From an uncultured Gammaproteobacteria bacterium (lineage in GTDB: Bacteria; Pseudomonadota; Gammaproteobacteria; DSM-16500): 64,000 bases of DNA. Every line of letters begins with the position of its first letter. Position 1 is the stretch's first letter. Location of the stretch: assembly GCA_963735995.1 (NCBI GenBank), contig CAVTNC010000003.1, forward strand, positions 1,601,696-1,665,695. The letters run 5' to 3'. Position numbers: made by a program. Of the stretch, positions 54,001 through 60,000 are shown piece after piece.

Positions 54001-57000
54001 GCATAAGGCATCATCTCATTTTGTTAATGTTGTACACGCTAAAATAAATTTAGCGGTGTCTAATTAAAAGGTTAAAAGTCTTGTCGCTTCATCGTCACTA
54101 CATTCTTCACTGTCGGTATCGTTACGGCCTACTGGTAGGTGGAGTGGATAATTAGATGGCCCTGCTTCTTCCCATTGTGGTGGCAATCCCATTTCGATAT
54201 CCGTGGTGATGGATGCTGCTTTTTTACGATTAGCGGGCTGAGTGAAAAGAGCAGCGGTATTTCCTGAAAGTGATAATGGTGTTTGGCTAGTGCTTGCTTG
54301 ACGCCACACATCTATGTTGAGATTTGCGATGGTGGTTATCATATCAATCGCTGTGTCCCTAAGTTGATTATTAGGTAATCGTGCAATATTGGCTTCAAAT
54401 TCTCTAATATCCGCTGCAGGGATGATTAAGATTCCTTCTTTTTCTAAAGCTTGCAATCTTTTTAGTATCTCTTTTGCTGTTGGCTCTACGTCTTTCCAAT
54501 GATGCCGGTTCAATGTGGGCTGTTTATTAAATAATATATTGTAAAGTAAACGCCATAAGACAATTAGTATTAAGACACCTACAACGAATGTTATCGCACC
54601 TCCTACAGCATATAAAGCCACGGCTAAACCTGCTGCTTTTCGTTCCTCCTGCAGGGCAGATATCGCTTGATTATTCCACGGATCAGCAGAAATAAGCTTA
54701 GCAATATTGCTATTTAAGTCGTCGACTTCTGTAACTTTGATGCCAGTTAGGACAAATAAGGGAATCGATAGCGCCGGTATCAGCAGTGCGGCTAGTGGTG
54801 CGAATATCACAATGGCGCGATAGGTTAATGAAGTGGTGGGTTGGTTATTTAAATTTGTTAATATCGTATTCAATTGTTTGTTAAAGGCAATCAGCATCAG
54901 TCTGTCTTGTTCTCTTATCTGATAATCAGCAAGTGTTTCATGCTGTTTTTTTATTGATGCTGCGTGTGGAGAAGATGGAGCTGCCGATATTTTTTTTGCA
55001 TATTGCGGTATCTGTTGCAGAATCTGCGGAGGAATTGGCAACAATAAATCACGATAAGTGTAGTGATGATGAGTCCTTAGTAACGCCTGCAGAAATTCTC
55101 GTGATCGAGAGTCATCAGGATCAATGTCTGGTCTATGTCGCAAGATATCTATTTTAGGATTGGAAGAAACCACTGCTCGATAAGTGTGACGATTGCCCAT
55201 AAAAGGATTTAGTTCAAGATGGATACGGACGAGTTCAAGTAAACTTTGTGATGCGGCAGTTGCTTGTAAAAGAAATTGATGTGCTTTGGTTAAAGAAGAA
55301 TTGTTAATTTGCAGGTGATGATAGTCTTCTCCACATTCTTTAAATGAATGGTGATTTACCTCAGCAAAAAGAATCTGTTTTTTTCTGCTATCAGCCTGAT
55401 CAATCATCTCTTCGAATATCGCTAAAAAACGCTGCCGATGATTTGGAGGAAGATGGTTATAGATAATATGTCGTTTTTGCATGGAACAGCTCATAAGATA
55501 CTTGTGTACCGTGTTGCCAAAGTTATTACTGGTATGCAAATCAGTTTCATATTGAAAAAGTAAAGCGAAGGTATTAGGTCTATTATTTTTATAAGCAATA
55601 TGAGCAGCCGTGTTACCTTCTTTTTTATTCGCTTGATTCAGATAATTCACAAAGTTTTCTTCTTTTTTTATTTCCTCGAGCAACAGTTCAGTAACATGAT
55701 AGTGCCCATTTCCCGCTGCCATCATCAGCGGTGAATGATGTTCCTCATCAGAGATAAGCCAAGGAGGTATCCTTTCTTTTTCGGTAATTTCCTTTCCTTT
55801 ATCTTTAATGAGAGAACCATCCCTGTCATTTTCTGCAAGCATTTTTTCTTGCTCTTTGGTAGTCGTCATTAACGATTTTAGTAAACGAATATGACCGCCA
55901 GCCGCTGCGAGCAAGAAGAGGCTTCGACCTTTGGTGTCAACGGAATAAATGAGATCAGCAAGAATTTTTTCGGGACGGTCACTGTTATCGGCAACAAACT
56001 TACGGATTACTGTTTCAGCAACCTGAATGGCTTTTACCTCGATAGCATGATGCAATAACGGTATTCCGTCTTGATCACAAGCAAGATAATTGAAACCATG
56101 GTAATGACCATATGTATTCAATAATTTTTCCGCTTCAGCAAATTCTCCCAAAACAAGTGATTGGTGAAGTGCCTCTTCGATTGTGTTGATGAAACGACTG
56201 TCATTACGCTGCTGCATGGTTTACTCCTCATCGGATGCTATTATTTGTAATAATTATATTGCGCAAAATTATAACATCTCACCTTGCTTTTAGCAAAAAA
56301 GCGGATTGCAGTTCTGAAAATAAGTTATTTAAAATGAATGAGTTAAGATGAAAGTCCATTACCGCAATGCGGCATTTACCAGTATTTCCAGCATTTCTTG
56401 ACGTCCAGACGTTGGTTGTGGGCTCACTTCATTATCGAGAACGTGGCTCGCGATTTGGCTGAAATCGGTTTTGCCTTGCAAGATTTCTTGGCCGAGTGGT
56501 TGTTGCCAGGGTGCGTAACGTTTCTGTAAAAAAGTTTCGAGAGATTTGGTTTCAACGAGTTTGGCAGCGACCAGTAAGCTGCGAGCGAGTGCGTCTATGC
56601 CACTTAAGTGACCGAAAAACATATCGCTTAAGTCGATACTTTGGCGGCGTAATTTTGTGTTGAGATTAAAACCGCCACTTTGAAAACCGCCGTGACATAA
56701 TAATAAATAAAGCACTTGCACCATTTCGTTGAGATGTGTTGACAGCGTATCGACATCGGATGATGTGTCACCTTGATTACTATCAATACTGCCAAATAAA
56801 TTGTGCGCAAATGCATAAGCCACTTCGTGAGAAAAAGAATGACCGGCGAGCGAGGCGTGATTTGCTTCAATATTTACTTTGAATTCTTTTTCTAAACCAT
56901 GTTGTTGCAAAAAAGCTGAAACCGTTGCGGTATCGTAATCGTAAGGATGTTTTGTCGGCTCACAGGGTTTTGGTGCGATGAGTAGTGTGCCTTTATAACC

Positions 57001-60000
57001 AATTTTGTGTTTGTACTCGACCAGCATGGTTAAAAACCGCGCCAGCTGTTGCAATTCTTGGGTGAGATTAGTGTTCAGTAACGTATCGTAACCATCACGA
57101 CCGCCCCATAACACATAATTTTCGCCACGCAACCTATGGGTAATATCAAGCGCTTGTTTGACTTGAGCAACAGCATAAGCAAATACATCGGGATCAGGAT
57201 TGGTTGCAGCACCGGCTAAATAACGACGATGACTGAAAAGATTAGCGGTTCCCCACAAAAGACTTATGTGTTTTTGCTCCATCTCAATGGCTATTTTTTC
57301 AGCGATGTGTAATAAATTTTTGTTGGTTTCACGCAACGTATTGCCAGTGGGTGCAATGTCACGATCATGAAAGGTGAAAAAACGTAAACCTAATTTTTCG
57401 ATGAATTCAAATGCTGCTTTGACACGTAATTCTGCAGCGTGCATCGCATCATGGTGTTGCCAGGGCCGATGATATTCATCATTGTTTCCTGGCCAGCAAA
57501 AGGTCTGCCAAAAACACACGGAAAGACGCAAATGTTCTTCCATGGTTTTGCCCAATACTTTTTGTTGCGGATTGTAATAACGATAAGCGAGATGATTGGT
57601 TGACTCTAATCCTTCAAATACAATGGCTGGCATGTCATCGAAAAATTGCGTCATGATTTCATCTCCCAAAGACTTCCTTGAAAAAATTTTGCATCGCAAG
57701 CCATGATCTTGCATCGGCATTTTTATCATAAACGGTTCCAAAGGCTGCGTCATTTGCTTTTGGATTGGTGAAAGCATGCATGGCATTTCCATACATGTTC
57801 AGTTGCCAATCAGCTTTCGCCGCTGTCATTTCTTCGCCAAAAGCAATAACGTGATCTGGTGTCACCATGGGATCATCAAAGCCATGTAATGCTAAGATGT
57901 GAGCGTTGATACGATGCGGTGTAAAATTTTCCGGTGCATGTAACAAACCATGAAAACTAACAACGGCATCGACTGTCGCACCACTGCGAGCAAGATCGAG
58001 TGCACACAAACCACCAAAACAAAAACCAATAGCAGCGATGTGATGATGATCAACGCCATCCATTTTTTTAACGGTTTCGAAAGCCGCCAATATGCGTTGT
58101 TGCAATTTGTTGCGATCTTCGAGAAAGGGCTGTATCAACGCAGCTTTTTCTTCTTTGGTCTCGCCTAATGTATTTTTGCCAAACATATCGATGGCAAAAC
58201 CAATATAACCAAGTTCAGCTAATGCTTCTGCTTTGTTGCAAGCAAAATCATTTTTCCCAGACCAATCATGACACACTAATACCGCTGGTTTTTTTGCAGC
58301 ACCACTTTCTTCGTTGGCATAATAACCTTCGAGGATGACATTCCCATCGTGGTATTCCATTTTTTGTGTTTTTAACACAGGTGAACTCCTTATCAAGATC
58401 AAGCTAATTTTTGTGGTGAAAGCGTTGGATTTGTTATGGCTGAAGGATGCATTTGCCAAGACGTATCGATGTAACTACTGGCATCTTGCATGAGAAAATG
58501 CCAAGTTTGATTGGCGATTTTATCTAACCAATGCTTGATGGGTTCAGGACTTTTTTCCGCAACCAAACGTAATTGGGTAATGACATCCGGTGAACCATGA
58601 CTTTGCATGCGCACAGAAGCCGCATAAAAAGCGGATTTTTTCTCATCGTTTGAAGCAAGTATGGTTTGCAAATATTCGTGCAAGAGACGCAGACTTGCAA
58701 AAATTTGGCGGAGCTGCACTTCTGCTTGACCATCTTTCGTGAGCAGAGAACCAATGTTCAATAATTTAGTGCTGGAGGACGCAATGGGTTCGAAATACGT
58801 ATTGTCACGAATAATGCGCAGGACAGTTAATAATGGTGAATCATTACTGATGAGATGCGTCAGCATTTTATCAGTTTCTGCAAGATTGGTTGGTGTTTCT
58901 AAATGCAGGTTGTTGAGTAAACTTTCCCATGCATCAATGTATTTTGCAACGTAGGCTGAACGCAGTTGTTGCAAGAGCGCGTTGGTCAGTGCTGGATTTT
59001 TATTATTACCAATTTCTTCACCCAATACCCAATTGCCACTCATGGTTTCTTGCGCAGCAAGTGTTGCTTCCTGCGTTAAGATAGTGCTGAAGGCTTTTGC
59101 GGTGTACATGAGTGGCATGGGTTCTGTTGCTTCATTATTGATAAAAATCGCAGCAGCAGGCGTGTTTGCTGCAAGATGCAAACTCTCAGCATTATTACCA
59201 TCGGTATTACGCAATATGGCATAACTTAATGCTAATCCAGGCATGGCGGTAAAATAATGTCTGGTTTCTTGTATCACATTGTTGTTCAAGGGAAAGGCTT
59301 GCCAAGCTGATTTTAAGGCCACATTAAGATGGACGACGAGCTGATTTTTTTCTGTTTTGGTGAAATGGCTTGGCAAGAGTTGTTGCAAGGTGTTGATCAG
59401 ATAATTCGCATCAAAATGCGTGGTGTCACCCAACATTAAATATGTTTTTAATGCCGCATAAACATTATCGGTTTCTTTATTGACCGGATTTTTTAAATAA
59501 TCTTCGAGATAATTTTTGATGGTTGGCAACAATATGGTTTGCAGTGCTTGACGATAAGCAAGGTCAACATTTTTCTGCGATTTATGCGAGTAAAATGCCA
59601 CGAGATGCGAAAAATCCAAGCTGAATTTTTTATTTTCTGCGGCAGGTTGCAATACATTTAATAATGTGATGGTTTGTATTAGATGCTCATTCTGATCATT
59701 GGATTGCACCATCGCTAAACGATAATGCGACAGATGATTTTGTATGGCATACGTTTGCTTGACGCCTTGTTCGAAATCACGACCCAAAAGTAAAGCGATA
59801 GCAAGCACGGCACTGATGGAGGCGGCATATGCTGCGCGTTGTTTCCAGCGACTAAGTGCCAGCTCAGGTGTTGCGTGTGCCTCATGTGCCAAATGATGTG
59901 TCAGAAATTGTTTAATGAAATAACCACGGGTGGCAGGTGTCGGTTCTTTAAAAATTTGCAAGGCGCGTTGGTTATTGTTAACCGTCTCTTCAATCACGGT

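Follow-up and report, generated by a model that had tools for sequence, protein, structure and literature searches.

Introduction

Xylose isomerase is among the best-studied two-metal enzymes, and the class II enzymes of Thermotoga neapolitana (1A0E), Piromyces (5NH4) and Escherichia coli (P00944, whose numbering is followed here) served as our points of comparison. In Streptomyces numbering, metal 1 of the enzyme is held by E181, E217, D245 and D287 and metal 2 by E217, H220, D255 and D257, with E181 and D287 forming the axial pair of metal 1, both of which hydrogen-bond O2, O3 and O4 of the sugar (PMC8070043). Here we describe a xylA-like gene in a 64,000-nt stretch (the window) of contig CAVTNC010000003.1, from an uncultured soil-dwelling gammaproteobacterium that is Legionella/Coxiella-like and belongs to the order Legionellales. 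The gene lies directly behind icmH, icmF and a gene of the dienelactone hydrolase (DLH) family; from the sequence alone, an original prediction had read its product as a xylose isomerase pseudoenzyme in an apparent operon with icmH-icmF.

Two described systems bear most closely on this locus. The first is the xyl cassette of related bacteria. Coxiella burnetii has a XylA (CBU_0344a) that is 62% identical to the window protein, and a preprint describes ongoing loss of the same cassette in a Legionellales relative with a reduced genome, the Coxiella endosymbionts of Ornithodoros ticks (PMC13252051). The endosymbiont copies are reported as pseudogenes, whereas the window gene has an open frame and, apart from three conservative changes given below, conserved positions outside its active site are untouched. 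The second is the fis-dotU(icmH)-icmF-DLH module of Aquicella-like Legionellales; all four of its genes are present in the window, although the window IcmF is about 215 aa shorter than that of the relatives, and xylA lies outside the module in every relative.

The explanation that we favor, at a probability of about one in two, is that the window gene is the last gene of a deleted cassette, that it encodes an enzyme, dead or rewired, with a fold still subject to selection, and that its link to icmF is a by-product of the deletion.

Loss of the metal-1 axial ligands in a class II xylose isomerase homologue

By sequence and by fold, the window protein is a member of the class II xylose isomerase family. 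It scored 577.9 bits against TIGR02630 (EC 5.3.1.5; cutoff 533.25) and 604 bits against NF003998 (cutoff 459), its best match in the PDB was 1A0E (E=4e-138, residues 3-428), and it matched the solved enzymes over its full length with 47-49% identity. The AlphaFold2 model (pLDDT 87.1, pTM 0.89) had the class II (beta/alpha)8 barrel with its C-terminal helical arm, and Foldseek aligned it with 1A0C, 1A0E, 4XKM and 5NH4 at TM scores of 0.93-0.95 and root mean square deviations of 2.0-2.3 A. Since the equivalog cutoff is passed, annotation pipelines would name the protein a xylose isomerase.

Substitutions were read from a MAFFT alignment of the 120 closest homologues (57-72% identical). The window protein shares with the class II enzymes the catalytic His/Asp pair H101 and D104 (FHDRD), the lysine K234 (PKP), the shared glutamate E268 together with H271 (NIEANH), and D296 (SIDSN). 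It differs from them in E232A and D339N, in a G-x-D-x-F-G loop that is four residues shorter, and in an LGW turn that is two residues shorter (Table 1). Each of these four alterations was unique to the window protein among the 120 homologues, with these ligand changes in 0/119 of the others, and both indels are multiples of three. In the shortened loop the aspartate has also become asparagine, and the lost phenylalanine and glycine are invariant in 116/116 full-length homologues. Up to this point the original prediction was borne out: the protein is a full-length class II homologue, H101, D104, K234, E268, H271 and D296, which it listed among the kept residues, are kept, and E232A, D339N and the partial loss of the loop are real.

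The prediction had further listed D309L, a loss at metal 2, and on this point we arrived at a different reading. HMMER alignments to the PDB sequences, the MAFFT alignment of 120 sequences and an L-INS-i alignment of seven all set the DVD of the window protein on D307-T-D309, so that the loss falls on QLGW, which has become SS. At the nucleotide level two placements of this two-residue gap tie, with 9/24 matches each, and the model has a pLDDT below 50 at residues 297-302. A second XylA-like protein, P0045 (see below), is ungapped in this region and reads DTD-TLS where the window protein reads DVD-TLS. Because the three alignments agree and P0045 offers this parallel, we take both metal-2 aspartates as probably retained and D309L as a probable artefact of gap placement. 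The dips in model confidence were not used as evidence of loop damage, since a control model of the canonical sister protein dips at the same active-site loops.

Beyond these alterations, the protein differs from the class II enzymes in H50Q, E103T, E187D, Q237P, A292S, QFP to TLS and NFD to NLN. When highly conserved columns were defined as those with at least 90% conservation (188 columns), it deviated at 22, compared with 2 for the sister and a median of about 4 for the homologues (leave-one-out, same threshold). The 22 changes comprise D58N, the lost F and G, E227A (equivalent to E232), Q298S, L299S, the lost G and W, and D332N (equivalent to D339), together with a set that the original prediction had not listed, namely A45S, H50Q, F61Y, E103T, E187D, F220Y, Q237P, T268S, A292S, F304L, P305S, F331L and I350L. 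Four of them (D58N, E103T, E227A and D332N) remove negative charge, as would be expected if a divalent cation were no longer bound.

The two replaced ligands are exactly the axial pair of metal 1, and the deleted loop phenylalanine (F26 in Streptomyces numbering) is one that we take to reach into the active site of the neighboring subunit. With both axial, sugar-bonding ligands of metal 1 and this inter-subunit loop gone, the sequence argues strongly against normal function, and it is very probable that the protein is no longer a xylose isomerase, in keeping with what had been predicted; it would then convert neither xylose nor glucose.

Origin of the arrangement by deletion

A sugar transporter (MFS), an FGGY kinase (xylB) and xylA occurred in this order in 5/5 relatives examined, these being the genome with the closest homologue (P0002, 71%), two other uncultured relatives, a 1.7-Mb metagenome-assembled genome (MAG) and C. 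burnetii. On the contig that encodes P0002 (L002), the cassette directly follows accC-fis-dotU-icmF-DLH, with the same synteny as in the window; in the four other relatives it is found at loci elsewhere. A tblastn search of the whole 64-kb window for xylB and sugar transporters gave no hit better than E about 1, which extends the earlier observation that none is adjacent.

The sequences at the joint indicate how the two arrangements are related. On L002 the DLH gene ends in ...TTTGAGGGGTAA and is followed first by a 13-bp hairpin and then by a stretch of about 100 nt, and xylA is preceded by the spacer TAAGAGAGAAAAATCATGACG. The window joint reads ...TTTGGGAGATGAAATCATGACG, and the start codon of xylA and its own ribosome-binding site are intact there. 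The joint, the new DLH stop and the 4-nt gap are all accounted for by one loss of about 3.0 kb that begins in the final codons of DLH and ends at the xylA ribosome-binding site, and we are highly confident that the window arrangement arose by deletion of the transporter and xylB. The hairpin on L002 (L002:7023-7121) is perfect, CTGTCATTCCCGC-CTGC-GCGGGAATGACAG, without a T-run, and may be a repetitive extragenic palindromic (REP)-like element or a terminator; its absence from the window is attributed to the same deletion.

The course of events would then have been as follows. In the ancestor shared with the closest relative, the cassette would have lain just 3' of the fis-dotU-icmF-DLH module, and one deletion of about 3 kb would have taken out the DLH hairpin, the transporter and xylB. 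What remained would be xylA, still preceded by its own Shine-Dalgarno sequence and with its ATG 4 nt past the new DLH stop, and transcription of icmH-icmF-DLH would now incidentally extend through xylA.

The transporter-xylB-xylA cassette was also present in many uncultured Legionellales- or Coxiellaceae-like genomes (L003, L083-L086; proteins P0003-P0137), with source labels that include Legionellaceae, Legionellales and Coxiellaceae MAGs. This is at odds with the statement that other Legionellales have no orthologues of C. burnetii xylA and xylB (PMC13252051).

Selection or decay

We next consider where the changes fall. From the secondary structure of the model, the final two residues of every strand and the loop after it were taken as the catalytic face, 127/431 residues in all. 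Conserved columns had changed at 19/89 positions on this face and at 3/99 elsewhere (Fisher p=7e-5), the three off-face changes (A45S, F220Y and I350L) all being conservative. When indels and adjacent columns were collapsed to single events, about 12 face events stood against 3 elsewhere (p ~0.006, a hand-count estimate). The sister had 0/89 face and 2/99 off-face changes, and the pooled canonical sequences had 1.3% and 3.1%, respectively. The off-face rate of the window protein thus equals the baseline of working enzymes, which are themselves biased in the opposite direction. At less conserved columns the numbers of window-only and sister-only changes were about equal (40 and 29). The targeted losses in an intact open reading frame (ORF) that the original prediction had described therefore stand.

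Such a pattern was rarely reproduced by neutral decay. Simulated neutral evolution of the sister's coding sequence was stopped once 9-13 conserved codons of the face were altered. At that point the frame was still open in 1.6-6.5% of runs (P 0.016-0.065) and at most three conserved off-face codons had changed in 0.9-5.9%; both held jointly in 0.05-0.55% of runs (0.0005-0.006). Plain neutral decay after loss of the cassette was downgraded as an explanation for the reason that the changes are confined to the catalytic face. Sloppy evolution throughout the genome was ruled out, since the neighboring DLH is clean at conserved columns, deviating at 1/108 (family median 2). The window branch was longer than that of the sister for all neighboring genes. 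The comparison of nonsynonymous and synonymous divergence (dN/dS) that had been proposed earlier gave only the relative dN, with three-point branches of 0.124 for the window and 0.080 for the sister, because dS was saturated.

Off-face conserved residues are kept at the rate of working enzymes and the frame is open, which suggests that a folded protein is still made and selected. Judged in this way, it is somewhat more probable that the fold is under selection, in a dead or rewired enzyme, than that it is not. Such a protein may be a pseudoenzyme, or an enzyme of changed chemistry that uses at most the metal-2 site.

It is also conceivable that the protein has remained a sugar isomerase, acting on another substrate or with a changed use of metals, and that it supplies a kinase whose gene lies in another part of the genome. 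H101, D104, K234, E268, H271, D296 and probably D307 and D309 are kept, the score lies above the equivalog cutoff, and the search for xylB covered only 64 kb of a 1.78-Mb genome. However, both axial ligands of metal 1, which also bind O2-O4 of the sugar, are replaced, the Phe loop and the LGW turn have suffered deletions, 22 near-invariant columns are changed, and the kinase and transporter of the cassette itself are gone. Moreover, losses among the catalytic residues were as frequent as on the conserved face overall (2/10 vs 19/89), which gives no pointer to residual catalysis. We consider continued isomerase activity of this kind very improbable.

A second orphan was found in another sample. 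P0045 (L087:4123-5439, uncultured, run SRR28413688) is an intact 438-aa XylA-like ORF on a 6-kb contig. Like the window gene it is an orphan, with neither xylB nor a transporter beside it, and it has active-site damage and face-enriched changes (23/89 face vs 10/99 off-face, p=0.004). Unlike the window protein, it has lost other residues (H101N, D296N, W to T in LGW, and a 9-aa in-frame deletion), its off-face damage is raised, and its neighbors are parA and parB rather than icmF-DLH. Its neighbor-joining sister is the canonical P0012 and not the window protein, so that it represents an independent lineage; it had no close relatives in a collection of 5.8 billion proteins. The two proteins have QFP to TLS and NF to NL in common. 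Recombination between the genes was rejected as the source of these shared changes, as no recombination tract was seen, and the parallelism may reflect a coupled hydrophobic cluster that relaxes together.

A serious rival to selection on the fold, and one that we regard as a real if lesser possibility, is that the gene is a young relic, a pseudogene in all but name, which became useless when the transporter and xylB were lost and is decaying without having yet acquired a stop or frameshift, its protein doing nothing. The pathway partners have been deleted, and the lineage consists of a single member. Its genome is small (1.78-Mb contig), and further deletions or truncations are seen at the same locus. 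The ligands are intact in all 119 other homologues, and xylA and xylB are reported to be pseudogenised in related Coxiella endosymbionts (PMC13252051). The wider damage of P0045 fits a later stage of decay, which keeps this alternative alive, and the probability of finding no stop, taken alone, was 0.03-0.25 in a first simulation, which is not extreme. Against it stand the distribution itself, since neutral mutation cannot target an active site; the off-face positions, which are at the working-enzyme baseline, so that relaxation is not spread evenly; the low joint neutral probability; and the state of the gene, which has an open frame of 431 aa, two in-frame indels, and its start codon and ribosome-binding site. 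The original prediction had named intact ligands in relatives combined with neutral decay as evidence that would count against it. The first was found, E232 and D339 being kept in 119/119; the second rarely fits the pattern of changes.

Several observations weigh against selection on the fold and have to be set beside those that favor it. The catalytic face was drawn from predicted secondary structure and is a proxy for three-dimensional distance, and catalytic residues fared no better or worse than the rest of that face. Pairwise dS gave no estimate for 18/21 pairs. The argument from the missing stop codon is weakened because the finding was picked for its intact ORF, and selection against a misfolding, still-expressed product could spare the scaffold even if the protein served no positive function. 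Erosion of the locus extends beyond the missing pathway partners to the icmF C-terminus and a split ankyrin gene, and the preprint on Coxiella endosymbionts (PMC13252051) reports both xylA and xylB as pseudogenised. No RNA run was among the public sequencing runs that matched the window sequence. No orthologue sharing the changes was found in the protein collections searched, in one JGI metagenome DNA scan or in a search with DLH, and the 5.8-billion-protein collection, queried with XylA, P0045 and DLH, held no relative closer than 71-73%. In line with this, the orthologue alignment to which the original prediction had looked for conserved substitutions returned none, E232A and D339N being present in no other of the 120 homologues. 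A genome-collection scan gave homologues of at most 61% identity among the matches listed, and the motif I-A-P-K-P-C-E-P-x-K-H had no match in the metagenome DNA scan.

Relation to the icmF-DLH module

The order and orientation fis-dotU-icmF-DLH were the same in 4/4 genomes (the window, Aquicella siphonis LR699119, a 1.5-Mb MAG and L002). The genes 3' of DLH were different in each, and xylA followed DLH only in the window and, as part of the full cassette behind the hairpin, in L002. In this group, then, DLH is conserved as a partner of icmF, whereas xylA is not. The G-x-C-x-G nucleophile motif of the hydrolase is retained, and the protein is highly conserved, at about 70% identity across the group (window, L002, L088, L089); the window DLH is 68-70% identical to that of Aquicella species.

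Within the window, the icmF stop (58399) and the DLH GTG (58378) are separated by 20 nt, and the DLH TGA (57661..57659) is followed by AATC and then the xylA ATG at 57654, a gap of 4 nt; both gaps are as originally given. No terminator-like site was seen on the coding strand from icmF to the end of xylA. Given these gaps and the lack of such a site, co-transcription of icmF, DLH and xylA is likely, as far as it can be read from sequence.

The original prediction had gone further and proposed a repurposed sugar-binding sensor, paired with the hydrolase and functionally tied to expression of the Dot/Icm type IVB secretion system through icmH-icmF. The tight gaps and likely co-transcription would suit such a role, as would a scaffold that appears to be under selection. 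The adjacency, however, stems from a lineage-specific deletion, unrelated genes follow the same module in Aquicella siphonis and the 1.5-Mb MAG, and the xyl cassette lies elsewhere in four other relatives. A sugar-sensing role is doubtful in its own right, because the destroyed site, metal 1, is the main sugar anchor and holds O2 and O4. We thus regard this proposal as very unlikely. An evolved functional tie of the XylA-like protein to DLH or to the secretion system, in whatever form, is contradicted by synteny and is equally hard to credit. Since the adjacency of xylA and DLH came about by a lineage-specific deletion, the link to icmF is best seen as a by-product, with no conserved association behind it.

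The deletion next to xylA may not be the only one at this locus. Residues 5-914 of the window IcmF align to residues 1-915 of the 1145-1146-aa IcmF of Aquicella siphonis and the 1.5-Mb MAG; the IcmF_helical and IcmF_C domains (about 230 aa) are missing, the protein ends in about 15 unrelated residues, and DLH begins 20 nt further on. This looks like a second deletion.

Other features of the locus

The coordinates of the locus are collected in Table 1. The start of the xylA-like ORF was set at ATG 57654, which gives MTQFFDDM and can be compared with homologue starts such as MTSFFQDM. A 477-aa ORF starting at 57792 was rejected as a gene, since it merely overlaps the end of DLH.

Table 1. Positions of the genes and altered sites at the locus, in coordinates of the window
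Feature	Position	Strand	Remarks
fis-like regulator gene	62176..62454	(-)	first gene of the conserved fis-dotU-icmF-DLH module
icmH/dotU	61112..62002	(-)	
icmF, 929 aa	58399..61188	(-)	C-terminal ~230 aa of relatives' IcmF not present
dienelactone hydrolase (DLH) family gene, 239 aa, GTG start	57659..58378	(-)	G-F-C-F-G-G nucleophile motif
deletion joint: GGGAGA (Shine-Dalgarno-like and last two DLH codons), DLH TGA, AATC, xylA ATG	57655..57667	(-)	matches closest relative's xylB-xylA spacer GAGAGAAAAATC
xylA-like ORF, 431 aa	56359..57654	(-)	class II xylose isomerase homologue, damaged metal-1 site
in-frame 12-nt deletion in the G-x-D-x-F-G loop	57475..57486	(-)	GHDIFGEQTF to GNN----DEYH in alignments
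A227, equivalent of E232 (GCA codon, LIAPKP)	56974..56976	(-)	metal-1 axial ligand replaced; E in 119/119 other homologues
in-frame 6-nt deletion, QLGW to SS, then D300-V-D302	56749..56763	(-)	gap placement ambiguous at nucleotide level
N332, equivalent of D339 (AAC codon, NLNTK)	56659..56661	(-)	metal-1 axial ligand replaced; preceding F to L; N unique among 120 homologues

The region 3' of xylA showed no convincing terminator structure. A promoter-like site (TTGCTA, 17 nt, TG-TATAAT) lies at 56268..56296 (-) within the 141-nt spacer between xylA and a 717-aa ankyrin gene, which probably has its own promoter. Another ankyrin-repeat gene (51424..54004, minus strand) is split into ORFs of 130 and 746 aa by an extra A at 53644 in the run ACAACAACAACAAA. 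In L001, a 12.6-kb contig that another run yielded from the same strain, the ankyrin gene is undivided and encodes 859 aa; over 12.57 kb the two sequences differ otherwise only by a single-nucleotide polymorphism at 60684 in icmF. The split reflects either a slip-strand variant or an error of assembly. Public sequencing runs of four soil and freshwater-sediment metagenomes contained only short contigs identical to the window, which yielded no variants.

The window also carries Dot/Icm genes, including DotG/IcmE (42093..44399), and accC upstream of fis. Two LegK1-like Ser/Thr kinase genes in tandem (431 and 436 aa) lie in the region 16031..18657 (+)/21244..23709 (-), together with a gene for an 821-aa ankyrin protein that resembles Ank-family Dot/Icm effectors; these are likely effector genes.

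Implications

If the fold is indeed under selection, what the protein does is a separate matter. A stable protein free of metal 1, with a new role other than isomerisation and newly wired into the icmH-icmF-DLH transcript, and with P0045 as a parallel route, is a speculative and on balance rather unlikely extension of our preferred explanation. Possible roles would then be that of a ligand-binding or scaffolding protein, of a one-metal enzyme, or even of a Dot/Icm substrate, and orphaned XylA would be a recurrent source of pseudoenzymes in Legionellales.

In a literature search that combined xylose isomerase with pseudoenzyme, we did not find described a natural full-length member that lacks metal site 1 and keeps its scaffold. 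Two consequences hold for annotation and for the reading of gene neighborhoods. The protein passes an equivalog cutoff, and metabolic reconstructions would on that basis wrongly credit the organism with xylose use; and tight spacing to virulence genes can be the mere product of a deletion. Should selection truly be maintaining the protein, it would serve as a natural experiment on the capabilities of the barrel once metal 1 is gone, and the locus would show how genome reduction in intracellular bacteria turns a leftover metabolic gene into something else.

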